From a virus (Duplodnaviria > Caudoviricetes): a DNA stretch of 42,633 nt. The notes beneath the pieces were generated by a model. It was not told the DNA's origin. It worked only from the letters and a program-made list of their open reading frames with translations, and searched no databases. The stretch is from the IMG/VR virus record IMGVR_UViG_3300049004_000034, positions 1-42,633 of that record, one strand, 5' to 3'. Every line of letters starts with the position of its first letter. Position 1 is the stretch's first letter. This document shows positions 8,662-24,155 of the stretch, piece after piece. The position numbers were made by a program, and so were the translations under genes.

Positions 8662-8675
8662 ATTGTGTCCATAAT
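8662..8675. promoter_or_regulatory. Palindromic operator ATTGTG-TC-CATAAT between divergent terL and + cassette
   Basis: Exact copy of the 12545-12558 site. Confidence 0.7.
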
Positions 8676-8695
8676 TCAACGGAAGGGAGAGAGGC

Positions 8696-9060: not shown

Positions 9061-9239
9061 CTCAAAACCACAAGAAGCCGAAAGTCAAAAGCTACGAATG
9101 GGAATCGGGGAGACGGCGCCGGGGATGCATTCGACCCCCTGAAAGTACAAGAAGCGTTTGACTGGGCGCTTGAGCACCACTCGAACCTCATCGTCAAGCG
9201 AGCAATCATTCAGCTACGAGATTGCTTTATCTTCCCGCC

Positions 9240-11036
9240 CTAGGCCGCTTTAGAGCCGTAGCGACGTTCGAGTTCAGCCAGAATACTCGCTTTCGATTCT
9301 GAGCTTCCCGAGGGCTTCTCAGATAGCCCTGCGCCAACCTGTTCCAGCTTTTTCAGAGTCCGGTGGGCTTTCTGATTCGACGTTAGCTTGATCGGGGACT
9401 TGGAGAAACCCGGCTTGTCTCTCGTCGCGGTTGCACTCGAATCTACGGTAGCTGTCGTGCCACTTGCCGAGAGGGTCATGCCGGGGAAAGATTGGGTGGC
9501 CTGTGCGGAGAAGCCGAGCTGTAGGGCCTGCTTCTTGCCGAGGCCCGGTACGTGGCCCACGCTGTACTGAGCCAGATAGCTGGCTGAAGGGGCTGGGTGG
9601 GGGCCGAGGCCTCCCGCACCGCTGTCTCCCACGCTCGTACCCCAGTATTCGTTGCCGATCTTCATGAACGTGTGCTCGCCGTTGTAGAAGACCGTCACGG
9701 CTCCGGGACCGGGCTTCAGAACCTCTCCCATCGATCCCGACGTCAGGGGTGTCTTGAGGATGCCTGCTTTGCTTAGGACCCAGGAGACGGCCCCCGAGCA
9801 GTCCAGACCGGCCGGGGCCGATTCGATTGAGCCGTGCCCGCCGCCCCAGATGTAGGGGATATGGCGCTTTGTCAGGGCCGCCGCTGCGCTCTTGATCGCC
9901 TTGAAGCGGGTTACGACCTTCTTGGGTGCTATCCCAACGTTCGCTTGCTTACCGACCGCCAACCCAAGTTTCTGGGCCTTCGCTTGGGTTGCGGCAAGCT
10001 TGCGCTGCTGGGCTGGCTTCAGCCCTCCGCGTTCGAAGGCCTTGACGATTGCGTTTGCCTGAGGCTTGACTTCGTCGTAGCGTTCGGGGAAAGCAGAGCC
10101 CTGCGCGGCCTGGGCAGCCGATCCGGCTGTGGGCGCAGTAGCAGCCCCCGGATCTGTACGCAACTCTTTGTAGAACCGATCAGCGGAGGCCTTGACGTTC
10201 CTTGGCCCTGTCGGTCCCGTTCCATAGATCGAAGTCCTCTCTTGTCGCCAACCTTCTGAGTCCGCGTCACCACCTGGAAGATTTTCAAAGTGGCTCTCGA
10301 CCAAGCCCGTCTCCGAAGCAGAAAGAAGATTCTTGCGTGTCACGTGTTTCTTCTCGCCTTGGCGCAGTACCGTCCTAGCTACGTGGCTCTCTTGCGGGGT
10401 AAGGCCTGGGAGTGGGCCGTTCGAACGTCGTGCCTTCGATTCAAGCCGCTTGAGAGTCCGGGCGGTCCTCCGAACGGCCGGAGTCGTGACGAAGCCCTTA
10501 CGATTCGTAAGTAGTTTCCCGCTACTCGAAGCTACTTGCAATTCTTTCAAGCTGGGCGTACCAGCCGTCTTGACCCCCTGAAACTTCGGAGGTTTATAGC
10601 TCGGAGACTTGGGCCTCATCTGTGCACTGGCCCTTTCGCCTCCGAGCGGTTTGGACGATATCACCGTCTTCGTAGTCATCGGCGTATCGCGCTTAGCCAA
10701 CGCTGCCGCAGAGGGTCGTGAGGCCCGCTGCTGGCTTCTGCGATGGAACCCCAGGGCTGAAGCCTGCTGAGCCTCTACGCGGCTTACACGGCGCCTGCCA
10801 GCTCGTGAGCGCTGCTTAGCTTGAACTGCGGCATGTGGAGAGGAGAAGCCTGAGGTCGTTACGTGACCCGTGGGGCTGGTCGTGACGATGGTGGTCGGCG
10901 CTCGCCGGATCTTCGCGCCCTTGGGCTTTGAGCCAGAGCCTGAGTAGCTGCGAGTCTTCGGGTTGTAGGTCGTCGTCCCTTTGCGGGTGGGGTAGGAGAC
11001 GGGGGACTCGCCGGGACGGCCTGAGACGAAGGGCAC
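9240..11036 (-). CDS. Virion-associated peptidoglycan hydrolase (lysozyme-like domain plus NlpC/P60 peptidase)
   Basis: ETGLVES...GGDADSEGWRQER...AQAAQGSAFPERY lysozyme-like motif; PYIWGGGH...GLDCSG...H NlpC/P60; basic low-complexity N-terminus. Confidence 0.8.
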   Translation of the reverse strand: MPFVSGRPGESPVSYPTRKGTTTYNPKTRSYSGSGSKPKGAKIRRAPTTIVTTSPTGHVTTSGFSSPHAAVQAKQRSRAGRRRVSRVEAQQASALGFHRRSQQRASRPSAAALAKRDTPMTTKTVISSKPLGGERASAQMRPKSPSYKPPKFQGVKTAGTPSLKELQVASSSGKLLTNRKGFVTTPAVRRTARTLKRLESKARRSNGPLPGLTPQESHVARTVLRQGEKKHVTRKNLLSASETGLVESHFENLPGGDADSEGWRQERTSIYGTGPTGPRNVKASADRFYKELRTDPGAATAPTAGSAAQAAQGSAFPERYDEVKPQANAIVKAFERGGLKPAQQRKLAATQAKAQKLGLAVGKQANVGIAPKKVVTRFKAIKSAAAALTKRHIPYIWGGGHGSIESAPAGLDCSGAVSWVLSKAGILKTPLTSGSMGEVLKPGPGAVTVFYNGEHTFMKIGNEYWGTSVGDSGAGGLGPHPAPSASYLAQYSVGHVPGLGKKQALQLGFSAQATQSFPGMTLSASGTTATVDSSATATRDKPGFSKSPIKLTSNQKAHRTLKKLEQVGAGLSEKPSGSSESKASILAELERRYGSKAA

Positions 11037-11200
11037 TAGGAACGCCTGATCTTGCGTTTAGGCCGCTTGACCTTGCGAACGTGCTGGAGATGGGGCACAT
11101 GAGAGCCGTGCGCGTCTTTGACGAATTTCTGCGCCCAGGGGACGCCTTCGTTGGCCTTCGCATGAATGTATTTACTTTGGGATATGCTGGAGTAAGGAAT
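11036..11200 (-). CDS. Small basic protein (possible ATT start; alternative TTG at 11221)
   Basis: GGAG-8nt-ATT CCT TAC TCC; K/R-rich C-terminus; stop abuts next start. Confidence 0.6.
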   Translation of the reverse strand: MPYSSISQSKYIHAKANEGVPWAQKFVKDAHGSHVPHLQHVRKVKRPKRKIRRS

Positions 11201-11214
11201 GGTATATTCTCCGT

Positions 11215-11823
11215 ATGCCAAGACACGCGAATAAGACTAGCTTCAAGAAAGGTCATACGCCCTCCGATGCTGAAAAGCGCAAAAGGAGCGAGTCCCTCAA
11301 AGCACGATACGCGGCGCAGGGCTTCGGGCCACCACGCAATTCATGGACCGAGGAGTCTAGACGAAAGCTACGAAAGACTCAGCGAAAACGAGCTAAAGAA
11401 CAGCGCGAAGAAAGACTTGGAAAGACCCGGCTCCAGAATGGGTATCGGCAGATCATGACCCTAGATGGCTATCGCTACGAGCATCGGGTCGTCATGGAAG
11501 AACATCTTGGGCGGTCTCTGCAGAGCAATGAACTCGTCCATCATCGCAACCATGACCGGCTGGATAATCGGATTGAGAACCTTGAACTAATGCAAGGCCA
11601 TAGCTCACACATGAAATTGCATGGGAGGTCTGAGTTCGGCAAAGAACAAGGTCCGCTATCCAGACTGGAAGCCGGGGAGTGGTCCCGACACTTTGAGTCA
11701 TGCGCATCCTGCGGGACGACCAAACGCCGATACGCTGGACGTGGGCTTTGCTGGAAATGCTACGAAAGAGCGAGAAAGTCCGGCGCGCTACCCAGCGTCA
11801 GCGACGGACGAAGACGCGCTTGA
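11215..11823 (+). CDS. Free-standing HNH homing endonuclease (NUMOD3-like N-terminus, C-terminal CxxC...CxxC)
   Basis: SFKKGHTP; YEHRVVMEEHLGR...VHHRNHDRLDNRIENLEL; leaderless TATATT-N6-ATG. Confidence 0.9.
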   Translation: MPRHANKTSFKKGHTPSDAEKRKRSESLKARYAAQGFGPPRNSWTEESRRKLRKTQRKRAKEQREERLGKTRLQNGYRQIMTLDGYRYEHRVVMEEHLGRSLQSNELVHHRNHDRLDNRIENLELMQGHSSHMKLHGRSEFGKEQGPLSRLEAGEWSRHFESCASCGTTKRRYAGRGLCWKCYERARKSGALPSVSDGRRRA

Positions 11824-11863
11824 CGACCGTGAGCAAGGCTTTTACTGGGCACATCAATCTCCT

Positions 11864-12193
11864 CTAAGTTTTCAGCGTCTCTTCGAGCCTGCGTTTCGCC
11901 TCACGGCGGGCTTCGGCCATTGTGCAGGCCGTTAGATCGCCTCGATTCGGCTGTTCGGCGTAAATCCCTCGCGCCAGTTCCTCCACGTCCACGGCGTTCT
12001 CGGGATCGCCCTGGGGATTCTCCAGCTTCTCGTCTCGCTGGTTGCGAGTCTTCCTGGCCTTCGCCAGGCCGAGCTTCCCTCGTACGTAATCGGAGGTATT
12101 GAGATTGGCTTCTCTCGCCTGTCGGTCGAGCTGGTTCTTCTCCCAGACGACGAGGGGCAAGATGAAACGAACGTTGCGAAGCGGCTTACTCAT
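11864..12193 (-). CDS. Ribbon-helix-helix (MobC/CopG-like) DNA-binding protein
   Basis: VRFILPL..EKNQLDRQAREANLNTSDYVR; ATGA-coupled. Confidence 0.65.
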   Translation of the reverse strand: MSKPLRNVRFILPLVVWEKNQLDRQAREANLNTSDYVRGKLGLAKARKTRNQRDEKLENPQGDPENAVDVEELARGIYAEQPNRGDLTACTMAEARREAKRRLEETLKT

Positions 12194-12528
12194 CGACAGG
12201 CGAAAAGCGCCTGCTTGGCGCATCCGAAGTAAGGCGTCTTTTCGGCTGGCGAGAGGCCCGCCCACTCCCGCCCGCGGTCCGAGGTCCCGGCAGACATCCG
12301 CCGGACGGCTTTGAAGAAGTGCTCGGCCATCGTCTCAACTGCCTCGTCACTCTGTAGCACCTCCTTAAGCCGCTGACGCTCCTGGTCGGCTCCCTGTTTG
12401 CGGAGGGCGGGGGCAACGGCGGCCACTACGTCATCCAGATCACTTTGGTCGCTTTCCACATCGATGACCAGGCCGTTTTTGCATGCCGTCGACCACGCGG
12501 CGGTCAAAGCTTCTTTCGGTAGCTCCAT
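12190..12528 (-). CDS. Hypothetical protein (leaderless)
   Basis: TAGGCT (12535-12540)-N6-ATG. Confidence 0.75.
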   Translation of the reverse strand: MELPKEALTAAWSTACKNGLVIDVESDQSDLDDVVAAVAPALRKQGADQERQRLKEVLQSDEAVETMAEHFFKAVRRMSAGTSDRGREWAGLSPAEKTPYFGCAKQALFACR

Positions 12529-12537
12529 GCCGGGAGC

Positions 12538-12696
12538 CTAGCAGATTGTGTCCATAATCACGACAAGCTCCCAAAGACCGTCTTCCCGTTCGCGCCACTG
12601 CCCAACGTTACGAGACTTCCCGGTCTCGTCCTCGACCTCTACGAATACAAAGGTCGCTCCGGGCTTGCGATCGAAGACGAAGCGAAGCTCTTTCAT
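12538..12696 (-). CDS. Small hypothetical protein
   Basis: MKELRFVFD...FVEVEDETGKS..VGQW; ATGA-coupled to upstream gene. Confidence 0.7.
   Translation of the reverse strand: MKELRFVFDRKPGATFVFVEVEDETGKSRNVGQWREREDGLWELVVIMDTIC
12545..12558. promoter_or_regulatory. Palindromic operator ATTGTG-TC-CATAAT just upstream of the -10 box of the 12528 gene
   Basis: Exact copy of 8662-8675. Confidence 0.65.
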
Positions 12697-13118
12697 GCCG
12701 TTCGATAGGTCGTCGGCGGAACCGGGGCGTAGCCCTCGCGCTGGGGGATCTTCTCCAAGACCTCCCCCTTCTTGACCTTCGCCCATTCCTCTCCGGCCTG
12801 ATGCCTGGCTGTTACGCCGGGCCAGCGTCTCTCAACGTCTCTGTGAAGTTCGGTAATGCGCTCGTAGAGATAGCGTACGTAGTCGTCGCGGGAGGCGTCT
12901 TCAGGAACGAGAAGCGCCTCTACGTCCTCCAGCGCCGGAGGGGTCTCGTGGCCCTCAAATTCAAGGGTGTCTCCCACGCTGGGCGTCGGGCCGACTATGG
13001 AGCAGGTTCGAACGTAATCGGAAGTCTTTTGGCCAAACTCCTCGGCCAGGACCTCAATCCGTTCCTTCTCCTCGGTTGTGGCCCGGAACTTGATGGTCTC
13101 GCTTCTAGTTTCTGTCAT
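12693..13118 (-). CDS. Ribbon-helix-helix (MobC-like) DNA-binding protein
   Basis: TIKFRATTEEKERIEVLAEEFGQKTSDYVR; leaderless TACCGT-N6-ATG. Confidence 0.75.
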   Translation of the reverse strand: MTETRSETIKFRATTEEKERIEVLAEEFGQKTSDYVRTCSIVGPTPSVGDTLEFEGHETPPALEDVEALLVPEDASRDDYVRYLYERITELHRDVERRWPGVTARHQAGEEWAKVKKGEVLEKIPQREGYAPVPPTTYRTA

Positions 13119-13285
13119 GTGGCCACGGTAGCAGAGGACCACAGTGTTTGTGGCCACAGAGGGCTATTGGTTCCCAGCTAGTGCATCTCTGGCTTATAAA
13201 GATATTAGCTACGCACGCACAGCCGACCCACTCCCCCGCCCCCTATGGCTTGCTAGAGCGGTTTGAGGTTGATCAGCGCTCAGGC

Positions 13286-13372
13286 CTACTCGTGCTCAGC
13301 GCCGCAGCGTGCGCACTTGAGCCTGTCGATCTCCAGCCAGGACAAGAGGCGATAGCACGCTCTACATCGCAT
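13286..13372 (-). CDS. 28-aa zinc-ribbon microprotein
   Basis: MRCRACYRLLSWLEIDRLKCARCGAEHE; TAGGCT-N6-ATG. Confidence 0.65.
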   Translation of the reverse strand: MRCRACYRLLSWLEIDRLKCARCGAEHE

Positions 13373-13386
13373 GGCTACAGCCTAGC

Positions 13387-13515
13387 TCATCTGGCTCTGT
13401 AATGCGGGTTAGCGCTGTTTACAAGCGCGTAGGTACGAGCGCAACGTAGACATAGCGCCAGGTACCTCGCAGGTCGTAGTGCTCCACAGCGCTCACAGCG
13501 CGGGTCTGCGCTCAT
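13387..13515 (-). CDS. 42-aa zinc-ribbon microprotein
   Basis: MSADPRCERCGALRPARYLALCLRCARTYALVNSANPHYRAR. Confidence 0.55.
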   Translation of the reverse strand: MSADPRCERCGALRPARYLALCLRCARTYALVNSANPHYRAR

Positions 13516-13614
13516 GCCTGGATACCCCTGAGACGCTCTGTAAGACGTTCTAACGGCAATCGAGGGTCTCCTGGTAGGAAGCTATTCATTTAGCTCTAGG
13601 AGTGGCTTAGAAGG

Positions 13615-13767
13615 CTATTTGACAGGACGAGAGAGAGCATCTTGTTGTAGCAAGTACCTTACGTAAGCGCTAAAGCTGCTTCCGTGGTTCTTAGCCTGTC
13701 TCTCTACCGCAGCGCGTTCCTTAGCGCTCATGCGAAGTCTTAGTTGTCCGTGCTTGTGTTCTGGCAT
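13615..13767 (-). CDS. 50-aa ribbon-helix-helix protein
   Basis: MPEHKHGQLRLRMSAKERAAVERQAKNHGSSFSAYVRYLLQQDALSRPVK. Confidence 0.7.
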   Translation of the reverse strand: MPEHKHGQLRLRMSAKERAAVERQAKNHGSSFSAYVRYLLQQDALSRPVK

Positions 13768-13788
13768 GTAGCAACGAAGGTCGAAGGA

Positions 13789-13884
13789 CTAAATCTGAGA
13801 TGCGCCGCAATTCGGGCACTTACCCAACGTGCCGAGATGCCAGCCGCACTTGCAGATCCTTGGTTCTCTGCTCTCATCGCTCAT
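13789..13884 (-). CDS. 31-aa zinc-binding microprotein
   Basis: MSDESREPRICKCGWHLGTLGKCPNCGASQI; TAGGAT-N7-ATG. Confidence 0.65.
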   Translation of the reverse strand: MSDESREPRICKCGWHLGTLGKCPNCGASQI

Positions 13885-13916
13885 AGCCTCAATCCTACCA
13901 GCAAACCGCTCTGTGT

Positions 13917-13945
13917 TTGCTTTTCAGGTTCTTAGGGTCTACAGT
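13917..13945 (+). promoter_or_regulatory. Sigma70-type promoter of the + strand small-gene (early-like) operon
   Basis: TTGCTT-17bp-TACAGT, divergent from TAGGAT at 13892-13897. Confidence 0.55.
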
Positions 13946-13978
13946 GCAGTAGAAGACAACAACTAGCGAGAAGGACGA

Positions 13979-14164
13979 ATGAACTGGAGAGAGTTGGAGC
14001 AAGAGGCCATGATCGCGGCCGAGGAAGCACGCCGTCACTCCTTCGAAAGCCACACGATCAACGACCTACGTAGATGGCGTGATGAAGCCGAAAAGGCCGG
14101 TGAGCACGGTGTGGCTGACGAGATAGCCCGAGCGTTTGATCGCAAGATGGCCCCTCATGCTTGA
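13979..14164 (+). CDS. Hypothetical early protein
   Basis: AAGGA RBS; first of tightly coupled small ORFs. Confidence 0.75.
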   Translation: MNWRELEQEAMIAAEEARRHSFESHTINDLRRWRDEAEKAGEHGVADEIARAFDRKMAPHA

Positions 14165-14351
14165 CCAACGCTCACTGGCCGAGAAGAGCGCTGACCTGGA
14201 GCTTGAGATCGTGCGCTCTGACCTAACGGCTCAGGGCGAAGAGCTTGAGAAGGAAGGACTCCACGAGCCTGAAATCCTCGGAGCCTTCTGCGAACAGCTC
14301 GAAGAACGGCTCGCTCACCTGTACCGCGAGCTTTACGAGATCGGAGTCTGA
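14157..14351 (+). CDS. Hypothetical acidic protein
   Basis: Overlaps upstream stop. Confidence 0.7.
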   Translation: MLDQRSLAEKSADLELEIVRSDLTAQGEELEKEGLHEPEILGAFCEQLEERLAHLYRELYEIGV

Positions 14352-14491
14352 TGTTCGGTCTCCGGATCGAAATCTACGCCGATGACCTCAACGGAGTGAC
14401 CTACCAACTTCATGGCAAGGAATCGATCATGTACAAGGCGTGGCAATCCGGATTCGAGGACGAAGCCGACTACATGCCCTTCGGATGCTAG
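14351..14491 (+). CDS. 46-aa hypothetical protein
   Basis: GGAG RBS, TGATG coupling; MFGLRIEIYADDL. Confidence 0.65.
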   Translation: MFGLRIEIYADDLNGVTYQLHGKESIMYKAWQSGFEDEADYMPFGC

Positions 14492-14551
14492 ACGCCAACG
14501 TTTCTCGCAAAGCCCCTGCAGAGCGTCTTAAGTCTAAGAAAGGACAAGACA

Positions 14552-14734
14552 GTGGCTGACACTCAGAAGACAACAAAAGCCGCTAGAGAGGCTCTTACGG
14601 CTTCTCAGAAGATACCAGTTCTTTTGACCAGGGAAGAGTTGGGATATTGCCTTGGCTTTAGTAAGCCGATGGTCAAACTCTCCGACATCAACAGGAAGTT
14701 TAGAGCCGCTCTGGGAAGGCTTGAAAATGACTAA
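14552..14734 (+). CDS. Hypothetical protein
   Basis: AAGGA RBS, GTG start. Confidence 0.65.
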   Translation: MADTQKTTKAAREALTASQKIPVLLTREELGYCLGFSKPMVKLSDINRKFRAALGRLEND

Positions 14735-14891
14735 GACAAATCCTCGCTACACCGTCGAGCTGACGACTGAGGGATGGCAGATCAAGGACAACGAGAAGAA
14801 CAACTACGGCGGAGACGCTTACGGCTCAAAGGCTATCGCTGAAGCTGAGGCAGACGCTGCTAATCGTTTTGAAACGGACTGGCCTAGCTGA
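14727..14891 (+). CDS. Hypothetical protein
   Basis: MTKTNPRYTVE...WQIKD; overlaps upstream stop. Confidence 0.7.
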   Translation: MTKTNPRYTVELTTEGWQIKDNEKNNYGGDAYGSKAIAEAEADAANRFETDWPS

Positions 14892-14962
14892 TGGACCGCT
14901 CTGACGTCCTAGGCATCCTTCTCGGAGCCTGCGTGATCTTCGTCCTGGTTCACTGGATCTAG
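14891..14962 (+). CDS. 23-aa single-TM peptide
   Basis: MDRSDVLGILLGACVIFVLVHWI; coupled at both ends. Confidence 0.55.
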   Translation: MDRSDVLGILLGACVIFVLVHWI

Positions 14963-15141
14963 TGGCCGGGCTAACGCAAGCGGAGTTCGAAGCCTACGCA
15001 GCGCTGGCTTGGAAGTGCAGGCTGATCAACAAAGACCAGTTCGAGCTTCTTCGCAAAGAACACAAGCGCCTTGAGGGCTGGCCTTTCGCACAGGCTGTCA
15101 AGTGCCTCGAAGACGAAATGCGCTTCGAAGGGCGATTGTGA
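14962..15141 (+). CDS. 59-aa hypothetical protein
   Basis: GTG coupled to upstream TAG; GTGA overlap downstream. Confidence 0.6.
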   Translation: MAGLTQAEFEAYAALAWKCRLINKDQFELLRKEHKRLEGWPFAQAVKCLEDEMRFEGRL

Positions 15142-15356
15142 CTGAGCCAAGCGCTGAACAAATCAGAGCCGAACTGAGCCGTATCGGCTACGAGAAGGTC
15201 AAGGCCCGCGGCGCAAAGAACAAGAACGCCGTTGAACTCAAGCAATGGCTGCTTGAGGCTCGGCACAACCCAGAGGTATCGATGAACGAAGCGATCAAGC
15301 TGGCTGGGACGTATTGGTCCGTTGCCAAACACCTAGGGCTACTGGAGGAGAAATGA
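15138..15356 (+). CDS. Hypothetical protein
   Basis: GTGA coupling. Confidence 0.65.
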   Translation: MTEPSAEQIRAELSRIGYEKVKARGAKNKNAVELKQWLLEARHNPEVSMNEAIKLAGTYWSVAKHLGLLEEK

Positions 15357-15562
15357 CGGTAGGCGAGCTACGCAAAGCACTTGAGAAGTACGACCAAGAC
15401 GCCCTTGTGCTCACTCGCGGATACGAGGACGGCTACGTCGCTGCTGCGCCCGAGACCGAGTTCATGGCCTATCAGAAATCAAGCGCCTGGTACTACGGCG
15501 ATTGGTGGGAGGTCATGGATGCCAAAGACGGCCCGGGACAAAAAGCGCTCTACATCGGCTAA
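15353..15562 (+). CDS. Hypothetical protein (MTVGEL...L N-terminus)
   Basis: GGAGGAG RBS; ATGA coupling. Confidence 0.75.
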   Translation: MTVGELRKALEKYDQDALVLTRGYEDGYVAAAPETEFMAYQKSSAWYYGDWWEVMDAKDGPGQKALYIG

Positions 15563-16089
15563 GCCGCTGAGTCCTCAATCTCCTCAGCCGTTCCCTCAAG
15601 CACTTCCCCTGGCAAGAGAACGCGAACGCCCTTGTTGGCCAGGTTGGCGATGTTCTGCGTGATGTTGACCTGAACCGTAGGTGTCTGCTCTTCGTCGAGC
15701 TGCTGGCCCTTATCGGTATGGATCGCTGAGCCAAGGCCAGCTTTGCCCTTGAGCGTCAGTTCAGCCTCGGGCTTAAGCTCTCCAGCCTTCATCTTCTTCT
15801 TGAGGCGCTTCGTGACTTCCTGCTCAAGTTCCAGGTCCCTGATGGCCGCTGCGTGATGTTTGTCGGCAAGGAATTCTTTTACGTCCTGCGCTCGTTTGAC
15901 GCGAGCTGCGCGGTACTTGCCGGGGTGTTCAACTCGCGCAAGCTTCTTGAGGCGGTCCTTGGAGACCGGAAAACCTTCATCGCCTAGCTGGCGCGTTGTA
16001 GCGGCCAGGTTGCCTGCGTTGACGGCCAGGGACTCCAGGATGTGCTCTATCTCGGGGACAGAGAGGGTGCGTTGGAGGGCTGTGTTCAT
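15559..16089 (-). CDS. HTH protein, candidate terminase small subunit
   Basis: N-terminal HTH-like GNLAATTRQL..VSKDRLKK, helical middle, IHTDK..L and VQVNI tail. Confidence 0.5.
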   Translation of the reverse strand: MNTALQRTLSVPEIEHILESLAVNAGNLAATTRQLGDEGFPVSKDRLKKLARVEHPGKYRAARVKRAQDVKEFLADKHHAAAIRDLELEQEVTKRLKKKMKAGELKPEAELTLKGKAGLGSAIHTDKGQQLDEEQTPTVQVNITQNIANLANKGVRVLLPGEVLEGTAEEIEDSAA

Positions 16090-16262
16090 CGGTACATCTG
16101 CCTTGTGAAGAAGCGCCTAGCTATGAGTTCAGAACGCGTAGGGTCCCAGGGTCGCTTAGGCCACTCCCAGGTTGCTTGAGCTAGATCTGGCCCAACGTCC
16201 CAACCACAGAGCGGGTGTGCCCAAGCGGCCAGTGGAAGATCCTGAAGGTCGTACGGCCTCAT
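16086..16262 (-). CDS. Trp/Pro-rich small protein (leaderless)
   Basis: TAGGAT-N7-ATG; ATGA overlap with downstream gene. Confidence 0.55.
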   Translation of the reverse strand: MRPYDLQDLPLAAWAHPLCGWDVGPDLAQATWEWPKRPWDPTRSELIARRFFTRQMYR

Positions 16263-16299
16263 ACCCATGATCCTATCTCAAGAACTACGAAAAGAGAAG

Positions 16300-16380
16300 T
16301 GGACGCGCGGGGACTTGAACCCCGATCCGATTGGCGAGACTCGTCAGTCCCGGTCGGCAACTGATCCGCAGATCGCGCCC
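16300..16380 (-). ncRNA. tRNA-like RNA with Ala identity (G3-U70, A73) and non-canonical D/anticodon region
   Basis: Acceptor GGGCGCG/CGCGTCC+A; T-arm CGGGG-TTCAAGT-CCCCG; TACAAT -10 exactly 6 nt before G1; CCA not encoded. Confidence 0.8.
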
Positions 16381-16395
16381 ACCCACATTGTATCG

Positions 16396-16651
16396 AAAAC
16401 TCCACCGCTCGCGGATCAACGGCGAGGAGGCTCTACGAGCGGTGGCATTGCGGGAGAGAACCGCAAAAGGTGCCCCTCGGCTGTCATGACAGCGCTCGCA
16501 ATTAAGCTCGTAAGGGGCATGAAGTCTAAGACGGGTGCTCGATGGTCCCGTTTCGCACGGGACTGTGATCTAGCTGCTCTATCTCCCACTGGAATGTGGG
16601 CGAACCACTCCCGGCGACCGGGTGAGCGCGATCTTATGGCGCTCCAGCTAA
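16396..16651 (-). ncRNA. Candidate highly structured ncRNA
   Basis: Extended -10 TGcTATGTT (16658-16666); 4-way junction closed by TAGCTG/CAGCTA, then four more stems ending in a 10-bp stem + GTTTT. Confidence 0.55.
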
Positions 16652-16672
16652 TGCAGAAACATAGCAGTTCGG

Positions 16673-16765
16673 TCAAGCCCAACCAAAAGCGACGTAACAA
16701 ACCCAGTAGCCCGTATGGATAACAGCGATAGCCAAAAGGGCCACAATCATCCTCCCGTCGCTCAT
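16673..16765 (-). CDS. 30-aa membrane peptide
   Basis: MSDGRMIVALLAIAVIHTGYWVCYVAFGWA; ATGA-coupled. Confidence 0.5.
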   Translation of the reverse strand: MSDGRMIVALLAIAVIHTGYWVCYVAFGWA

Positions 16766-17109
16766 GAGTTCAACGGATTCATAGGCTGAATATCGCCCAA
16801 GAGGCTCATCTGGTCTTCCTGACGTCGCTTCGCTCCTGCTGCCGGATGAGCTATCAGTTTGATCCGTTCGTCTTCCTGACTATCCTGATAGACATCGACC
16901 TCGTAGCCGCGAGCCCTCAAGTCCATAGCAATGGCTGGCAGGCTGGCCCAGCCGTTTTCATGGAAGACCTCGGCCAGAACGCCGTCTTTTTTGCTCTCAG
17001 CCGTGCTCAAGAGTTTCACGACCTCTGAAACGTTGGTCAGGTCTTTCGTCAAGGCTTGCGGCACCCAGCCGCCTGCACCATCGTCCTTGTAGGGCTTATG
17101 CAACGGCAT
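16762..17109 (-). CDS. Hypothetical protein
   Basis: Operon continuity; C-terminal QMSLL resembles a sliding-clamp-binding motif. Confidence 0.7.
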   Translation of the reverse strand: MPLHKPYKDDGAGGWVPQALTKDLTNVSEVVKLLSTAESKKDGVLAEVFHENGWASLPAIAMDLRARGYEVDVYQDSQEDERIKLIAHPAAGAKRRQEDQMSLLGDIQPMNPLNS

Positions 17110-17269
17110 TCTTGATCAGATAGTCCTGCTCGGCTTGCCAAAGACGTTGCTCAGCAGCGGAGAGAGCATCGTCTAGCTCAGAAGAGGCCATGGCGCTAAG
17201 TGCCTGACGCACTGCCATGAGAAGCTCTTGCGTCTCTGGAGGATGGCCCTCCCAGCCCCTAAGGGGCAT
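17096..17269 (-). CDS. 57-aa hypothetical protein
   Basis: TAATG coupling; MPLRGWEGHPPETQELL. Confidence 0.6.
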   Translation of the reverse strand: MPLRGWEGHPPETQELLMAVRQALSAMASSELDDALSAAEQRLWQAEQDYLIKNAVA

Positions 17270-17631
17270 TAAGGGGCCAACCCGTCTATCCGCTCGCTAG
17301 TCCGATGCAAATCCCGTACGACCGTGGCCTCGCGCTCTGACTCCTCGACCTTCAGCAGAGACGCCTTAGCCAGCGACGCTGCGATATTTCGCTTCATGCG
17401 ATGTTCCGCTGCGTCTGCTTCTGCTCGAATCTGCGCTACGCCCGATGGTTCTCCGGCCGCGCGATATTCGACAAGCTTGATCGCCTTGGTTTTGCGGTAG
17501 GCAAGGTCTTCCTTGGCAGCCTCTTCTGAATGGTGCACGTAGTCTCGCCGGGCAGCCCTACGGTCTTCTGCGATGGAACGGTCGGCCTTCCGACGGGCAT
17601 CAAGATCCATGACCTCGGGGTTTGCGTTCAC
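17269..17631 (-). CDS. Helical hypothetical protein
   Basis: GAGGGG RBS; GTGA coupling. Confidence 0.75.
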   Translation of the reverse strand: MNANPEVMDLDARRKADRSIAEDRRAARRDYVHHSEEAAKEDLAYRKTKAIKLVEYRAAGEPSGVAQIRAEADAAEHRMKRNIAASLAKASLLKVEESEREATVVRDLHRTSERIDGLAP

Positions 17632-17870
17632 GCGGCCCCTCTCTCCTCATAAGGCCAGAAATCCCCAGCCTCTACCGCGTTACCGTCAACGAAATAAGCC
17701 ACCGTGGTCCATTGCGGGTGCTGCGCTTTGCCTGTAACAAGGATCTCCTCAACTCGGCACTTGCCGATCCACCGAGACACCATCCTCGCTACTTCCTCCG
17801 CTTGTTCACGATGTGCGAACTGAGGACATTCCGATGATCCATCTTTCGGTGCGATCAGATAGACCTTCAT
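17628..17870 (-). CDS. Hypothetical protein
   Basis: MKVYLIAP; ATGA coupling. Confidence 0.7.
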   Translation of the reverse strand: MKVYLIAPKDGSSECPQFAHREQAEEVARMVSRWIGKCRVEEILVTGKAQHPQWTTVAYFVDGNAVEAGDFWPYEERGAA

Positions 17871-18124
17871 CGGAATAGCTGTTCGTTCTGATCGGTCCAC
17901 GCAGCGTAATCGTCCAGCGGCCTTTCGTGGCGTGCTTCTTCTTCTACGCGGCGCTGAGAGCGCTCGTCTGCAAAGAGATATGGAGGCATCGGTGGGTCCT
18001 GGACTCGCCAAGGACCAGAAAGCGCCTCGGCTTTCCAACGCGCGTCTTCTCGCGCTACTCGCCGTTCTTCGGCCTGATCCGCTGCTTCTTGCTCGGCACG
18101 CTCTCTGGCTTCTTGAGGGTTCAC
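17867..18124 (-). CDS. Hypothetical protein
   Basis: Coupled at both ends. Confidence 0.7.
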   Translation of the reverse strand: MNPQEARERAEQEAADQAEERRVAREDARWKAEALSGPWRVQDPPMPPYLFADERSQRRVEEEARHERPLDDYAAWTDQNEQLFR

Positions 18125-18240
18125 GGCTGCAGCGACCCCGGACGCTTGAAACCCTTCTCAGGGCTGAGTCGTTTCTGGTCGTAATCAGCGCGTCGAATTG
18201 CTAGCTTGCGTCGCGCTCTCTTCGCCGCTCTCTTGCTCAT
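18121..18240 (-). CDS. 39-aa basic protein
   Basis: MSKRAAKRARRKLAIRR...GFKRPGSLQP; coupled at both ends. Confidence 0.6.
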   Translation of the reverse strand: MSKRAAKRARRKLAIRRADYDQKRLSPEKGFKRPGSLQP

Positions 18241-18815
18241 ACAGCTCTCCTCGCCGTCTCGTTGATCCTGGCTTCCAGCTTGCTCAAGACCTTTTCGATC
18301 TTTCTCTCGGCAAACCGAAGTTCCGATCCAAAGGTACCACGGCCGTGCAAGAGTGGGTTGTCCCGGATGCGGTCCAAGGCTCCTTTGACGTCGGCGCGAT
18401 GACTTCTAAGCAGTTGAAGGGCTGGATCGCTGCTCTGTTTCTTGAAGCGTTCCTGGTCTGCTCTTGAGACTTCCTCTCCAGAGCCTCTGAGGGCCGCTCC
18501 AGGGCTATGGGTATAACCAGATGCCTCGGAGGCTTTGACAAGCTCAGCGCCCGTTAGATCGTCTCTCAGGCCCTCCTCGTAGCCCGCACTACGTGTCCTG
18601 GCGCGTAGTAGGCGGGGGCGGTCGTCCCTGACCACGTAGATCAAAACTCGTTCCTCGTCGCTCTCTTCGATGCCCGCTATGAGAAGAGACACTTTCGTTG
18701 AGAGCTTCAAGTCCTTTTCGTTGCCGATGTAGGTCCAGTCCTTCGGCAACGTGATCCTTGGGTGTTCTCCCGCAAACAGAGCTTTGCGTTGAGCGCGCGT
18801 GAGGCTCAGTCGCAT
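18237..18815 (-). CDS. Hypothetical protein
   Basis: 192-aa ORF in operon. Confidence 0.8.
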   Translation of the reverse strand: MRLSLTRAQRKALFAGEHPRITLPKDWTYIGNEKDLKLSTKVSLLIAGIEESDEERVLIYVVRDDRPRLLRARTRSAGYEEGLRDDLTGAELVKASEASGYTHSPGAALRGSGEEVSRADQERFKKQSSDPALQLLRSHRADVKGALDRIRDNPLLHGRGTFGSELRFAERKIEKVLSKLEARINETARRAV

Positions 18816-18961
18816 CGTGCGAGCTTCCCTTCTTCGCGTTCGCGCGCCTTGACGAGTTGTTCACGGCGCCACGCCTCGGCCCGTTCCAGCCGTGCAGCAC
18901 CTAGCCGACCATAGATCTTCTCGTTGGCTTTGCGTTGCTGGCGGGTAAGGGAGAGAGTCAA
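18806..18961 (-). CDS. 51-aa hypothetical protein
   Basis: TTGA coupling; N-terminus (M)TLSLTRQQRKA resembles that of the next gene (MRLSLTRAQRKA). Confidence 0.55.
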   Translation of the reverse strand: MTLSLTRQQRKANEKIYGRLGAARLERAEAWRREQLVKAREREEGKLARCD

Positions 18962-19182
18962 GCGGATCTTCCTCGGTGAATGTCAACCACTTCCTTCAGA
19001 TAGAGCGCCCAGAGAGCTGGGCCACCCACGGTGACAAAAGCCGCCTTAACCCACGCAGGAGGTCGATGGTTGTAGTGGCGCTGGACTGGGCCGGACATAA
19101 GCCGCAGCACGGCAACCAAGAGGGCTTGAATCGCTAGCGCGACAAGCCACCAACCGGAGATTGTAATCGTGACGCTATGCAT
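18958..19182 (-). CDS. Small two-TM membrane protein
   Basis: Two hydrophobic stretches. Confidence 0.65.
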   Translation of the reverse strand: MHSVTITISGWWLVALAIQALLVAVLRLMSGPVQRHYNHRPPAWVKAAFVTVGGPALWALYLKEVVDIHRGRSA

Positions 19183-19266
19183 CGCTAACCTTCAAACGCT
19201 CTTCGGCTACCGCGCGCCAGTGCACATAAGCGCGATAGCTGCACCGCCATTCCGTGAGGTAGTGAG

Positions 19267-19779
19267 CTAGTTTAGCTTCAAGTTCGCTTCGATCCTCCTT
19301 ACGAGCCAAATCTTCCATTGCTCAGATCCCTCCTCGCCTGGAACTCTCTCTGCAAAGCGTTCCGTCTTGGCCTTGGTTTTGAAGATCGTATCCCAATCGT
19401 TATAAGCCTTCAACTTGCCGTTCTTCTGCTCGGCTTCGTAGGGATCGAAGGCAGCGCCGCAGATTGCTTTTAGGCAATCGATAAGCCCGTGCTTCCCTCG
19501 CTTCAGGTGGGGGCGGATCAACTTGAAGTCCTCCAGGTCAAACCCAGTCAGAGGATGCCAGCAAGCTAGACGCCACCATTCATGAATGGCTTGCGCCTCT
19601 TCCCAGAGCGGATCGTTAGAGCTGACCTGTTCTTCGGCCCGTTCCAGCTTCGTGATCTTGGCCTTGAGGATGCGGAGATCCTTCTCGTACTGGACCAGGG
19701 TTCGCTCAGCCTGATCGCAACCAGGACACCCCTCATGAACCTCTCCCTGCTCATCTACGACCCGAAGAAGCGGCCTCAC
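19267..19779 (-). CDS. Protein resembling the C-terminal domain of phage replication initiators
   Basis: CLKAICGAAFDPY...YNDWDTIFK...ERF; N-terminal CPGC and coiled coil. Confidence 0.5.
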   Translation of the reverse strand: MRPLLRVVDEQGEVHEGCPGCDQAERTLVQYEKDLRILKAKITKLERAEEQVSSNDPLWEEAQAIHEWWRLACWHPLTGFDLEDFKLIRPHLKRGKHGLIDCLKAICGAAFDPYEAEQKNGKLKAYNDWDTIFKTKAKTERFAERVPGEEGSEQWKIWLVRRIEANLKLN

Positions 19780-19943
19780 GTCCAGTCTGCTTCGGTCTTC
19801 TGCTGATGACGCAGTGCAGCGAACAGACGTGGGTCTGCGCCTAGACGGTCCAGGAGGGGCCAGAGACTACGCAAGCTCTCAGTTTCCCGATGCACCTTCA
19901 CGACCTTCATTTCCCAACGCTGGAGCTGCTCTGAGGCCGTCAC
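19776..19943 (-). CDS. 55-aa hypothetical protein
   Basis: GTGA overlaps at both ends. Confidence 0.6.
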   Translation of the reverse strand: MTASEQLQRWEMKVVKVHRETESLRSLWPLLDRLGADPRLFAALRHQQKTEADWT

Positions 19944-20374
19944 GCGGTAGCCGCAAGCGCGTCGGCCAGGATGTTGAAATGGGCTCCATGGTGGCCCTTG
20001 ACCCAGCTAAATCGCATGGCAGGTAGAACAAGGGCGTCTAGCTCGCGCCAGAGGTCCACGTTCTTGACGCGATGCGGGGACTTGGCTTTCTTGCGCCAGC
20101 CGTTGCGCTTCCAGTTATGCCGCCAGTCGTTGATCCCATCGACCACGTATCTGGAGTCGGAGATCAGTTTGATATGGCGAGGCGATTCCCGGAGTTCGCC
20201 AGTCCACCGCAGAGCTTCGATCATTGCCGTTAGCTCCATGCGATTGTTCGTGGTCTCCTCGTCCGAGCAGCCGGAAGCTTCCCAAATGATTGCGCCTTTC
20301 TCCTCAACTACGAAAGCCCAACCTCCAGGTCCTGGGTTTCCTACACAAGAGCCGTCTGTCCAGATTCTCAGCAT
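19940..20374 (-). CDS. rnhA: Ribonuclease HI
   Basis: TDGSC.GNPGPGGW, TTNNRMEL, SDSRY, WKRNGW, VKNVDLW, WVKGH, N..ADALA; all catalytic acids present; GGGGAG RBS before ATG 20374. Confidence 0.96.
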   Translation of the reverse strand: MLRIWTDGSCVGNPGPGGWAFVVEEKGAIIWEASGCSDEETTNNRMELTAMIEALRWTGELRESPRHIKLISDSRYVVDGINDWRHNWKRNGWRKKAKSPHRVKNVDLWRELDALVLPAMRFSWVKGHHGAHFNILADALAATA

Positions 20375-20399
20375 TCTCTCCCCGTCTCTCCCTGCACTC

Positions 20400-20836
20400 A
20401 CTCCTTCTATCACGTCCCAGACTCAGAAGCTACGTGTTTTCCAAAGCCCCGTAAGGGCCATAGAACCCCCGGCAGCCGTTACGCCCAGGCACTCCCTGCG
20501 CTTAATGAGCCCTGGAACAGACTGGCTGGGTAAGGCAGGCTGTGGAAGGGCTCTTAGGTAAGCCGCTCTCCCTCTGTCCGTTACGACAAAGAGATTGAGA
20601 TCCCGTTCCGCTCCTTCTCCTCTGACCTCCCGGTGACTTCTAACTTCAGAAGCTCCAACTGAGGGTTTGATGTATCTGCTCTCGGGCTAGACTTGCCCAG
20701 AAGGTGCCTTCTCTTCTGATCGCTACTTCAGAAGTCAGCGGCTACATTCGGCCTACCTATGGACTGGTTAACGCCTCTCGGTGGGGGCGCTCCGGGCTTT
20801 ACCGGCAGTGGCTTGACACAAGGTAGGCCGCGTCTG
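20400..20836 (-). other. Long structured non-coding region, candidate RNA-primed replication origin
   Basis: No convincing ORF; inverted repeat 20749-20758/20821-20830; ACTTCAGAAG repeats; minus strand ends GGGGG-TT-CTATGG...TGGAAAAC. Confidence 0.4.
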
Positions 20837-21079
20837 CTACGCTGCGGCTGTCGATCCTTTCTGGCGAGTGGGTTGACAATCTTTGAGAGGCCGTCCTTCG
20901 GGGCGGTCTTTCTCTTTTGAGGCAAGCTGCTTCCTGAAAGCCGCGTGAGCCATCTCCTGCCACGAGAACGGCCTAGAAGCCCGCGCGAGCCATTTCTCCC
21001 ACGCCTTCTCAGCCTCAGATCCCTCCCAGCGCTTCTGCGCCGCTAAGATCTGCTCCAGTAGATCGGAGGTTTCAAGCAT
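20837..21079 (-). CDS. Hypothetical protein
   Basis: MLETSDLLEQIL; overlaps upstream stop. Confidence 0.6.
   Translation of the reverse strand: MLETSDLLEQILAAQKRWEGSEAEKAWEKWLARASRPFSWQEMAHAAFRKQLASKEKDRPEGRPLKDCQPTRQKGSTAAA
20849..20918 (+). ncRNA. Candidate ~70-nt antisense RNA
   Basis: TTGACA (20813) and TGcTACGCT (-10 at 20838-20843); hairpin 20849-20878; terminator stem with cUUCGg loop and U-tract; GU pairs only work on +. Confidence 0.6.
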
Positions 21080-21281
21080 GTGCCTTGACCTTCGCCCGGC
21101 TCTCCACGAAGAGGCGCTTCTCAACGCGAACTTTCGAATGCGGGTTCTCAACGCCTCCCGTGCACCACTCGCGCATGGAGTTGCCCATCCCGTGCCTAGC
21201 CACCTTTCCAATCCGATGGCAAGTCGGCTCCGGACAAACTGGGAGACAGACATACAGCCGTTTGTGCACGCGCTCAGGCAT
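21072..21281 (-). CDS. Cys/His-rich small protein
   Basis: YVCLPVCPEPTC...WC...H; TAGGAT upstream. Confidence 0.65.
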   Translation of the reverse strand: MPERVHKRLYVCLPVCPEPTCHRIGKVARHGMGNSMREWCTGGVENPHSKVRVEKRLFVESRAKVKAHA

Positions 21282-21314
21282 CAGAGAACCATCCTAACAT
21301 GCCTCGGCGCGCTT

Positions 21315-21350
21315 AAAAGCCCGCCACCCTCAACCAAGAGAGCAGCGGGC
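21315..21350 (-). terminator. Intrinsic terminator
   Basis: GCCCGCTGCTCTC-TTGGTT-GAGGGTGGCGGGC-TTTT. Confidence 0.75.
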
Positions 21351-21406
21351 CGGTCCCATCGTCGTCAGCGGTGCGTAGATAGTCTTGAGAGCTTCTGTTG
21401 TAGCTC

Positions 21407-21664
21407 CTAAGGAGCGTTCTCGTCTTTTGAAGGAGCACATAGCGTCGCGGGCCTACGGGGCCTTGTAGAGCCCCCTACGACTCGCTCTGCGTAATCGGCT
21501 GCTTCTCGTTCGGTCGTGCTATTGGGACCGTAGTAGCACGGATGCTTGAACTTCTCGGCGGCGTGTCGGCTGCCTGCCGTCCAACCCCGCAACCATGCGG
21601 TTTCGAGTTCTTCTCGAAGGAGCACTTCAATCCCCTCGGTTCCAATCAGATCCTCAATTGTCAT
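21407..21664 (-). CDS. Hypothetical protein
   Basis: Operon continuity. Confidence 0.7.
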   Translation of the reverse strand: MTIEDLIGTEGIEVLLREELETAWLRGWTAGSRHAAEKFKHPCYYGPNSTTEREAADYAERVVGGSTRPRRPATLCAPSKDENAP

Positions 21665-22175
21665 GAGAAGCCATCCACTTTTCGATTCGGGCCAGGAGGA
21701 TCGCTCCAGTGCCTAGCTTAATCTGAGCGTCATTAATCACTCGGCCGCCATCCTCAGGACCGCGACCCTTGAAAAGGGTTTCAGCTTGAACAAGGGCTTC
21801 GTCGTCCTGGCGCTGCCACTCCTCCAGCCAGGGCCCTAGCTGGGCCACTGGGAAGAGTTCTCCGAGAGGCCAAGAGGTTATGCCGCCTTGGAAAGCATCA
21901 ACTTCAGGGCTCTCTCGCTCCCAGCCGATATCGCCCAGGAGGTTGGAGAGAGCTGCGACCTGGCGAGCAGCGTCGGAGCACTCTGCATAGATCTTGGTTG
22001 AGATCCGGTGGTCCAAACGTTGAGCAAGCCTTTGAATTGAATCCAAAGCATGGCATGCGACGTGGTCTCTCTCCTCTCGACTGAGGCGAAAGGCTTCTCC
22101 TCGCAGGTTCTCGGGTCGCATGGCCTCTCCGATCTCTTCGAAACTGAGCCCTGTGAATTTGGAATTCATACTCAA
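21654..22175 (-). CDS. Hypothetical protein
   Basis: GGAGG RBS; start at 22175 or 22169. Confidence 0.75.
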   Translation of the reverse strand: MSMNSKFTGLSFEEIGEAMRPENLRGEAFRLSREERDHVACHALDSIQRLAQRLDHRISTKIYAECSDAARQVAALSNLLGDIGWERESPEVDAFQGGITSWPLGELFPVAQLGPWLEEWQRQDDEALVQAETLFKGRGPEDGGRVINDAQIKLGTGAILLARIEKWMASHDN

Positions 22176-22570
22176 GCCTCCACGGGACGGCCGGTGGCTC
22201 GGATGATCTTAGCTATCTGGCTTGGCTCCTTGGCAAACGCATCGCGTCCGTCGAGTACTTCTGCGATCTGATCCAGAGCCACCGAGTCTCCGATTTCAGC
22301 CAGAAGATCTTCGTTGATCCCGTAAAGATGTTCGGCAGCCCCGCGTCTGGGGATTTCATTGAGAAGCTTCAGGGCTCCCTCGTCCCTTAGCTTCATTACG
22401 TGGTAGCTGACGCTGCCAATCGGTCGTTTGAGCTGCTTGTGCAGCCCCACGGGGCTTACGAGGCGACCTTGGGCGTGAGCCTCACGAGCTGCCTGGAGGA
22501 CCTCTCGCCTGATCTCGTGGCCGTTGATCACGGCCAGACGCTCTGCGATAGATTTCTCGGGCTTAGACAT
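22172..22570 (-). CDS. ArsR-like winged-helix transcriptional regulator
   Basis: H.IRREVL...SPVGLHKQLKRPIGSVSYHVMKL...RRGAAEHLY. Confidence 0.85.
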   Translation of the reverse strand: MSKPEKSIAERLAVINGHEIRREVLQAAREAHAQGRLVSPVGLHKQLKRPIGSVSYHVMKLRDEGALKLLNEIPRRGAAEHLYGINEDLLAEIGDSVALDQIAEVLDGRDAFAKEPSQIAKIIRATGRPVEA

Positions 22571-22745
22571 CTCCCTCTTCCTCCCGTTTCAATGCGTCGC
22601 GGTCCCCATCAGGCCATAGATAGGCGCCCACCAACCTCCTGGCCCAGGTGCCATCACCCAACTCGTAGCGAGACCGAGCGATAGCTGCTGCCAGGCGTTC
22701 ATCGTGGTCAGCGGGGCGAATATCAACCCTTGACGTTGCGTCCAT
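22563..22745 (-). CDS. Hypothetical protein
   Basis: GGGAG RBS after a strong promoter. Confidence 0.7.
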   Translation of the reverse strand: MDATSRVDIRPADHDERLAAAIARSRYELGDGTWARRLVGAYLWPDGDRDALKREEEGDV

Positions 22746-22782
22746 TGGCTCTCTCCCAACGTTGTTAGTCAGTGCTTCTTAG

Positions 22783-22810
22783 ACCATACAGTTTGAGGAG
22801 AACCTGTCAA
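22783..22810 (-). promoter_or_regulatory. Sigma70-type promoter
   Basis: TTGACA-16bp-TATGGT just downstream of a terminator. Confidence 0.65.
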
Positions 22811-22822
22811 GAGCTACAGAAC

Positions 22823-22853
22823 AAAAAGAGCCACCCTCCGAAGAGAGTGGCTC
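22823..22853 (-). terminator. Intrinsic terminator
   Basis: GAGCCACTCTC-TTCG-GAGGGTGGCTC-TTTTT. Confidence 0.85.
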
Positions 22854-22911
22854 GCAAAAGGACCAGTCCAAAGGTCGCTGCACTCGGAGCGTATCAGCTA
22901 GAAAGGAAGCA

Positions 22912-23373
22912 TTAGTCGATCCGCTGCATAAGCCCGTGATGCTGCGAGTGATGGGACGGGCATAACCACCTGACCTCCAAAGGCTTGCTGTAGTCGTCGT
23001 GGTGGGCATGAACGATTTGGTCTCCGCAAATCTCGCAAGGCTGTCGGATGAGTTTACCGCTTCGCACTGCCTTGGCCACGATTGAATGAACCCGCTTCTT
23101 CTCGGGATTTGCCTCATTCCAGCGCTTACCAATTTCGCGGATCTTCTCGGGGTTCTCCCGCGCCCACTTCTTCGCAAGCGCTTGTCGTTTCCCCTTATCC
23201 CTTTCGTAGCGCGCTCGGTCACCCGCTCGCACAAGCGCAGGGTCACGCCTAGCTATCCATTCCCGGCGTTCCTTAAGGGTCTTGCGGTTGTACCAGCCCC
23301 GCATGTAGTCCCGTTTCTTGCACTTCGGGCAGACCCCACATTGACAACTCGGAGGTCTGCCCGTCTTCGCCAT
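22912..23373 (-). CDS. HNH-family endonuclease with Zn motifs
   Basis: CQCGVCPKC; GKLIRQPCEICG...HAHHDDYSKPLEVRWLCPSHH. Confidence 0.8.
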   Translation of the reverse strand: MAKTGRPPSCQCGVCPKCKKRDYMRGWYNRKTLKERREWIARRDPALVRAGDRARYERDKGKRQALAKKWARENPEKIREIGKRWNEANPEKKRVHSIVAKAVRSGKLIRQPCEICGDQIVHAHHDDYSKPLEVRWLCPSHHSQHHGLMQRID

Positions 23374-24107: not shown

Positions 24108-24155
24108 GGACACAATCTAGCGCAGCTTGCGGACGTAGGATAGGGTGCCCTCTCC

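Follow-up and report, generated by a model that had tools for sequence, protein, structure and literature searches.

A composite RNA locus in a phage genome whose constant two-hairpin block may act as an antisense RNA on the phage's own operon

The window, which is the whole stretch of 42,633 nucleotides of phage DNA analysed here, carries a densely folded stretch on its minus strand at positions 16396-16666. A preliminary description had read it as one RNA of about 250 bases that forms a new structural family and possibly works together with an adjacent tRNA mimic. Our analysis revealed a patchwork instead, real and more specific than at first read. On balance, we consider it probable that the stretch encodes a small RNA whose constant 3' domain (16396-16467) pairs through two loops with the ribosome-binding sites of the phage's own operon and thereby lowers their translation. 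Judged from sequence comparison, a multi-target antisense RNA turning down the phage's own early operon is likely the best reading. The tRNA mimic is an exchangeable neighbour rather than a fixed partner.

The phage, its probable host and its relatives

The 42.6-kb window has direct terminal repeats and is a complete virus record. Its minus strand carries the large terminase, portal and tail genes, and the portal is P22-like. Distant relatives of the large terminase (39-45% identity) were found in GTDB, and since all five genome carriers are Solirubrobacterales, the host is probably a soil member of this order (Thermoleophilia). A homologue search with the RNase H did not indicate a host. A tyrosine integrase was absent from all five complete genomes searched. 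Positions 15900-23000 were present as one identical contig in one public run.

Relatives were collected by two routes: six phages were found via a neighbouring protein and nine metagenome loci via the sequence pattern of the conserved block B described below. Four of the nine loci repeated loci already found and were dropped, which left 12 distinct loci including the window. The five remaining metagenome loci had been picked by hairpin 1 of block B and are therefore not counted for the conservation of this hairpin. The seven genomes compared (the window and G001-G006, of which G006 is 79% complete) are kin and not independent trials. The sequencing runs are known as contigs only; the RNA-labelled runs X15 and X4 carry pieces of related phages, and these cannot show transcription.

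One gene downstream of the folded stretch serves as a landmark:

15559..16089, minus strand: probable small terminase subunit gene, from profile matches near the large terminase in distant relatives

Searches of this candidate against Pfam and PHROG families returned none, and the profile matches suggest that it probably encodes the small terminase subunit. The adjacent terminase protein drops to 63% identity among the relatives. On the plus strand, a series of small frames at 13979-15562 lies behind a promoter-like site at about 13930-13960 and heads towards the small terminase gene; these are probably early genes. The second most conserved DNA block among the relatives was located at 9010-9060, upstream of the large terminase gene.

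The folded stretch is probably non-coding and densely folded

Every stem and box of the preliminary description was recovered in its place on the minus strand:

16658-16666, minus strand: extended -10
16645-16650 with 16571-16576, minus strand: closing helix of the junction
16624-16644, 16610-16622 and 16585-16600, minus strand: junction arms
16545-16563, minus strand: hairpin
16513-16519 with 16471-16477, minus strand: helix around the palindrome 16480-16493
16448-16466, minus strand: hairpin
16436-16445 with 16402-16411, minus strand: 10-bp stem
16396-16401, minus strand: T run

The claimed dense folding was confirmed by shuffling. The 271 bases fold with -105.4 kcal/mol (z -2.48), and 0 of 200 shuffled sequences equalled this value. 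A scan of the genome in 106 segments of 271 bases (15 shuffles each) gave z values of -2.48 or lower in 10 segments, and the lowest value (-4.24) overlaps the folded stretch. The proposed four-way junction stood in part. The first 95 bases, folded by themselves, adopt it as their optimum, but it is altered in the minimum-energy fold of the whole stretch, where a competing long-range helix replaces the closing helix, the third arm and the hairpin 16448-16466. In this competing fold part of the middle pairs with the loop 16452-16462, so that loop 1 of block B can be hidden in the window.

The preliminary description could not assign the stretch to a known family. Rfam models gave nothing at gathering score in the window and nothing below E 0.29 in 16200-16800, and on the 12 related loci they gave nothing meaningful. 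The folded stretch was without a BLAST match among GenBank phages, and the hairpin 16545-16563, searched as an exact pattern in viral contigs, returned 0 matches. The assignment to a non-coding RNA within an island of RNA cassettes was supported: the relatives have not kept the overlapping frames, and one hairpin at the 5' side shows covariation. Two frames are open across the stretch, 16416-16700 on the minus strand and 16267-16722 on the plus strand (94 and 151 codons). That one of them is a protein gene has a nearly negligible probability: neither has a PHROG match, and the lengths and stops across the stretch vary among nine loci.

Constant blocks alternate with exchangeable cassettes

The order of elements in the locus is constant: block A, 5' junction, variable cassette V1, block B, TAnnnT box, cassette V2, a second promoter-like block and the probable small terminase gene. 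Behind the second promoter-like block, a start codon follows within a few bases. The elements outside block B are:

16658..16677, minus strand: block A, promoter-like, ends in the extended -10 box; kept in 9 of 9 aligned loci
16565..16656, minus strand: 5' junction, four-way in the window and three-way in several relatives
16624..16644, minus strand: first junction hairpin, conserved, with a 6-bp stem and a 9-10-base loop
16468..16623, minus strand: variable cassette V1, with more junction arms, the hairpin 16545-16563 and a three-way element at 16471-16519
16299..16380, minus strand: tRNA-like cassette in the V2 slot, found by ARAGORN

The extended -10 nonamer of block A occurs a single time in the genome, and block A is a putative promoter. 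The first junction hairpin was compared in 10 loci. Changes on both sides of a pair were seen in L001 (three pairs) and L014 (one pair), and broken pairs in L003 (one) and L005 (two). The junction arms that follow this hairpin vary among the relatives. A 12-base copy of the sequence that opens the 5' junction in most relatives was noticed at 13174-13185 on the minus strand, upstream of the gene for a NikA-like DNA-binding protein; it is a possible operator.

V1 differs widely. Past its first approximately 38 bases, the V1 of the window has no BLAST match in the other 11 loci. The slot measures 74-749 bases in complete loci and is almost empty in L001 and L014. L002 and L017 have 115 bases of V1 in common and then diverge, and the V1 of L017 contains a cloverleaf-like element. 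The V1 of L005 holds an antisense gene similar to endonucleases with a T5orf172 domain (L005:3825-4433, minus strand), which has its own promoter-like box. Direct exchanges were observed in contigs of run X6: V1 is replaced at 16467/16655 and at 16472/16609, and V2 is replaced at 16187/16386, exactly at the block B edge. In contigs of X3 and X4 the window-type V1 and block B are joined to other V2 cassettes. Because V1 or V2 is swapped at the edges of block B in run contigs, the stretch is composite and the tRNA mimic replaceable.

The proposed partnership with the tRNA mimic was not supported. ARAGORN finds no tRNA in the other loci (L001-L006, L014-L022), and the window-type middle occurs elsewhere with another downstream cassette. 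The best helix between the stretch and the mimic has 11 pairs and was matched by 58 of 200 shuffles. Likewise, a single densely folded RNA of a new family, working with the mimic, is now very unlikely. The folding z value, the covarying 5' hairpin and the recurrence of window-type middles in runs X3, X4 and X5 speak for it, and so does a single RNA of about 390 bases with a tRNA-like end that distant relatives have at the same place. However, the relatives have unrelated middles, swapped where the conserved blocks end. The middle and the mimic assort independently of each other, the helix between the stretch and the mimic is at chance level, and models of the distant RNA miss the locus.

Several cassettes have features of their own. 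The tRNA mimic (16299-16380, minus strand) has a G3-U70 pair, A73 and a long irregular anticodon arm, and a variant of it is present in run X6. G3-U70 together with A73 is the alanine identity set. As a search query, the T-arm pattern of the mimic retrieved only a normal tRNA-Ala. Two tRNA-like cassettes were missed by ARAGORN, L017:1231-1340 and L014:1105-1229 (both minus strand); one of the two has a UUCG-type loop capping the anticodon arm, the other a loop resembling a CUA anticodon, plus a D-arm insert. The V2 cassettes L001:4590-4662 and L022:142-210 (both plus strand) consist of two hairpins with complementary 6-base loops that show a both-side change between the phages, and they are likely to be kissing-loop RNAs. 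No self-complements of the cassettes were found in the phage. V1, V2 and the next promoter are without antisense complements of the block B type. When 301 genomes from the presumed host order were searched with 16299-16680 by BLAST, 22 short matches and no host target were obtained; the 10 matches inspected were due to chance, and the 7 that realigned sit in open frames.

Block B is the most conserved DNA of the genome

Block B comprises 72 bases (16396-16467) with two hairpins:

16448..16466, minus strand: hairpin 1, seed 16452-16462 complementary to target site T1 (see below); kept in 6 of 6 protein-found relatives
16402..16445, minus strand: hairpin 2, whose open loop (16413-16436) contains an anti-Shine-Dalgarno core and is complementary to target sites T2 and T3
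16387..16401, minus strand: short T run and TAnnnT box (16387-16392); inner bases vary, and the pattern, which had itself been used to cut block B, is present in 12 of 12 loci

It is the most conserved DNA and the longest exactly shared stretch of the genome. It contributes 77 of the bases common to at least five of the six relatives and 73 of the 110 common to all six. Of 12 loci, 8 share all 72 bases identically and 11 share the large loop; the sole variant loop belongs to L014, which is a 1.5-kb contig without targets. One full copy was found in each of G001-G006. The pattern of block B was found in 0 GTDB genomes, and two scans for more distant carriers gave none with a changed loop. The loop of hairpin 2 is predicted to be mostly unpaired, and it was open in 8 of 9 full transcripts folded in silico. 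The T run and the TAnnnT box are likely the 3' end of the RNA and the -10 of the next cassette.

Such conservation, in a block that precedes the probable small terminase gene by about 300 bases and in a phage with a P22-like portal, might also be expected of a DNA signal, either a packaging start or a replication origin, that a protein reads as two inverted repeats. We regard this as highly improbable, as block B is constant despite the divergence of the small terminase to 63% and as such a signal leaves both the complementarity to ribosome sites and the G-U-type changes described below unexplained.

Block B is complementary to ribosome-binding sites of one operon

Complements of the two loops lie 1.8 to 6.3 kb upstream and share the strand of the RNA; they belong to one operon of about 6 kb whose extent is inferred from gene order:

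22783..22810, minus strand: sigma-70-type consensus promoter heading the target operon; the only promoter-like match in 8000-27000, present in 7 of 7 genomes
22747..22757, minus strand: T1, the first ribosome-binding site of the operon, in a non-coding leader
21465..21476, minus strand: T3, the end of a gene, a short way upstream of a ribosome site; weak in the window
18247..18268, minus strand: T2, ribosome-binding region at the end of a conserved gene for 192 amino acids; gives the window's best sense-strand duplex

The order promoter, T1, T3, T2, block A, block B is kept in 7 of 7 genomes. The operon contains small genes, including those for an HTH protein and the RNase H. The genes behind T1, T2 and T3 mostly differ between the phages, and the sites and block B stay. 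With unfolding costs included, the predicted net energies for T1 were -7.9 to -11.0 kcal/mol in 7 of 7 genomes. T1 forms 11 of 11 Watson-Crick pairs in the six relatives and has one G-U pair in the window; it stays exact in G004 and G005 despite a diverged promoter spacer and leader. For T2, the predicted net energies were -18.3 to -23.9 kcal/mol in 7 of 7 genomes, again including unfolding costs. T3 has 12-15 exact pairs in G001-G005 and a favourable net energy in five of the seven genomes. In the window it has one mismatch and a net energy of +2.2 to +3.8 kcal/mol, the net value is also positive in G006, and breaking changes were found in G005 and G006. The window's target changes at T1 and T3 are both A-to-G opposite U, a change that RNA pairing tolerates. 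Compensation between loop and target could not be seen, because the loop is invariant wherever targets are available.

The complementarity has a strand bias. Exact matches of at least 11 bases between block B and its own genome numbered 30 antisense and 7 same-sense over the seven genomes, and all six matches of at least 13 bases were antisense. In the relatives, 15-base pieces of the block B loop were found elsewhere on the opposite strand. Conserved 9-mers complementary to block B numbered 21 on the sense strand where 5.6 were expected (0 of 2000 shuffles), as against 5 with 3.0 expected on the other strand (453 of 2000 shuffles). For 10-mers and 11-mers, 2 to 29 of 2000 shuffles did as well.

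As a control for the Shine-Dalgarno core, this core was kept fixed and the flanks were shuffled. The flank pairing of loop 2 was beaten by 0 of 281 and 0 of 259 shuffles, that of loop 1 by 6 of 299. Plain duplex energies against shuffled loops gave a mixed result: loop 2 was reached by 0, 13, 5, 1, 0, 1 and 20 of 25 shuffles. In the four genomes whose best match is not the complement of block B itself, loop 1 was reached by 4 to 12 of 25 shuffles. The codons adjoining T2 and T3, which are coding ends, are also well conserved. One to three T1-like sites occur per genome, and T1, T2 and T3 differ from each other. A further complement of 11-12 bases to the border between stem and loop of block B lies at 12849-12859 inside the NikA-like gene, also in G005 and G006; it may be codon chance.

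Two other explanations bear on these matches. Block B could be a linker of terminator and promoter that is constant as a recombination site, similar to the PeSL cassettes discussed below, with the complementarity as a by-product of C/U-rich loops facing Shine-Dalgarno sequences. Its edges are indeed the exact places of cassette exchange, a T run and a TAnnnT box form its end, and T1 and T2 are exchange points as well. Yet it is single-copy in each genome, a terminator does not need a conserved loop of 24 bases, and the pairing extends past the fixed core and is strand-specific. We therefore judge a mere linker to be unlikely. Alternatively, the plus strand could be transcribed and present copies of ribosome sites as a decoy for an RNA-binding repressor. 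Block B also folds when read on the plus strand (z -2.8), where the target words are present in sense. The chance of this is slight, however: the direction given by the conserved promoter-like block and the T run is that of the minus strand, the region upstream on the plus strand is the variable V2 slot, and the A-to-G changes in the targets fit pairing with a minus-strand RNA.

Distant relatives carry a structured RNA of about 390 bases

A conserved structured RNA of about 390 bases was observed near the terminase genes of distant relatives (L087:805-1195, L088:1020-1415, L065:258-643 and L075:1161-1565, all plus strand). Its carriers, four of the distant records examined, are G013, G015, G019 and a contig of G021. 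Among 93 predicted pairs, 14 have changed on both sides. The RNA has a 5' three-way junction, a C/U core that is paired in cis, and a tRNA-like 3' end. It is possibly a new large RNA class: Rfam returned no family for it in the three of four carriers covered, and nothing meaningful on seven distant loci. The position is the same as that of the window's locus, and the first loop and the C/U core look similar by eye. Models of this RNA matched the window with E of at least 1 and away from the junction, and the locus itself was without a match. A kinship is thus suggestive only. In its own genomes, the RNA has no antisense excess (50 antisense and 55 same-sense matches).

Discussion

The antisense reading can be spelled out as follows. 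The RNA would be made from the minus strand, starting at the extended -10 (16658-16666) and/or as the 3' end of the operon message; between 22810 and block B, no terminator-like site is listed on this strand. It would end at the T run and present two C/U-rich loops. Loop 1 would cover the first ribosome site (T1), and loop 2 the internal ones (T2, and in most relatives T3). Where translation is blocked, polarity would also reduce expression further downstream. In a phage that has no tyrosine integrase, this would amount to a shut-off of early genes by feedback or by timing. The 5' junction probably makes the transcript more stable, and the middle would be passenger cargo, exchanged by recombination at the constant blocks. 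Block B would be constant because several sites must be matched, and this constancy would make it a convenient crossover point, which would explain the cassette exchange.

A wider joint reading is rather doubtful as a whole. It takes the locus as a modular RNA chassis of Thermoleophilia phages, in which a constant antisense head times the early-gene shut-off and exchangeable cargo (tRNA mimics, kissing-loop RNAs) acts as counter-defence decoys. The ancestor would be the undescribed RNA class of about 390 bases, which would hold an anti-Shine-Dalgarno seed in cis until its tRNA-like 3' domain is processed.

Most of the phage antisense RNAs known so far act on one immunity or lysis gene and stem from temperate phages of enteric bacteria. 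If the antisense reading is true, block B would be part of a switch that acts at several sites on an entire operon, in a soil Actinomycetota phage that appears to be lytic. Fixed ribosome-site linkers would then carry the control, and any gene swapped in behind them would be regulated at once. The predicted RNA-target pairs are now exactly named, and the RNA would offer a candidate mechanism for the reader of extended start-associated sequences in actinobacterial phages.

Comparison with known systems

Among the papers listed in a literature search, none was recognised as describing such an RNA. In supplementary files 3-6 of a viral RNA catalogue (PMC10690425) neither the motifs nor the contig numbers are present; other files of the catalogue may list the RNA. 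GOLLD, ROOL and the other large ornate RNAs and ribozymes of Rfam 15 gave no model match, and the middle is not conserved.

The c4 antisense RNA of phages P1 and P7 (RF01695) is described in the consulted sections of PMC12197685 and PMC5320573 as about 75 bases long, with two loops that pair at or near phage ribosome-binding sites. It is cut from or embedded in a longer transcript, has stems P1-P3 with a closing stem, matures by RNase P and represses the antirepressor operon of a temperate phage. Block B likewise has two loops complementary to phage mRNA at ribosome-binding sites, as judged from sequence and predicted energy. Unlike c4, it consists of two free hairpins without a closing stem, and its targets would be spread over one operon, at several sites that lie 1.8 to 6.3 kb upstream. 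The model RF01695 has no match at E <= 10 in the genome. With no tyrosine integrase in five of five complete genomes, immunity is not an evident role.

OppZ and CarZ of Vibrio cholerae are autoregulatory sRNAs derived from 3' ends, which exert feedback with polarity (PMC7398697, in the part consulted). Similar to OppZ as presented there, block B lies at the 3' end of the operon, delimited by gene order, whose ribosome sites it is predicted to block. It differs from both in being phage-encoded, in having two loops for up to three sites, and in its own promoter-like block and swappable 5' cargo. The PeSL cassettes of T4-type phages combine a constant stem-loop with a promoter element, and modules are exchanged at their edges (PMC2839356, in the part consulted). 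Modules are also exchanged at the borders of block B. Compared with that account, block B is single-copy rather than present many times per genome, its large conserved loops have targets elsewhere, and its cargo is mostly non-coding.

The start-associated sequences of cluster K mycobacteriophages are conserved extended ribosome-site sequences before unrelated genes, and the consulted part of PMC3203893 leaves open whether RNA or protein reads them. The phage studied here also has extended conserved ribosome sites before unrelated genes and probably infects actinobacteria as well. In contrast to the one repeated motif described there, it has three different sites, and a candidate RNA reader is present. 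In summary, the locus would work like c4 or OppZ and belongs to neither; it is best compared to the loop-antisense RNAs of phages, here embedded in a series of exchangeable RNA cassettes.
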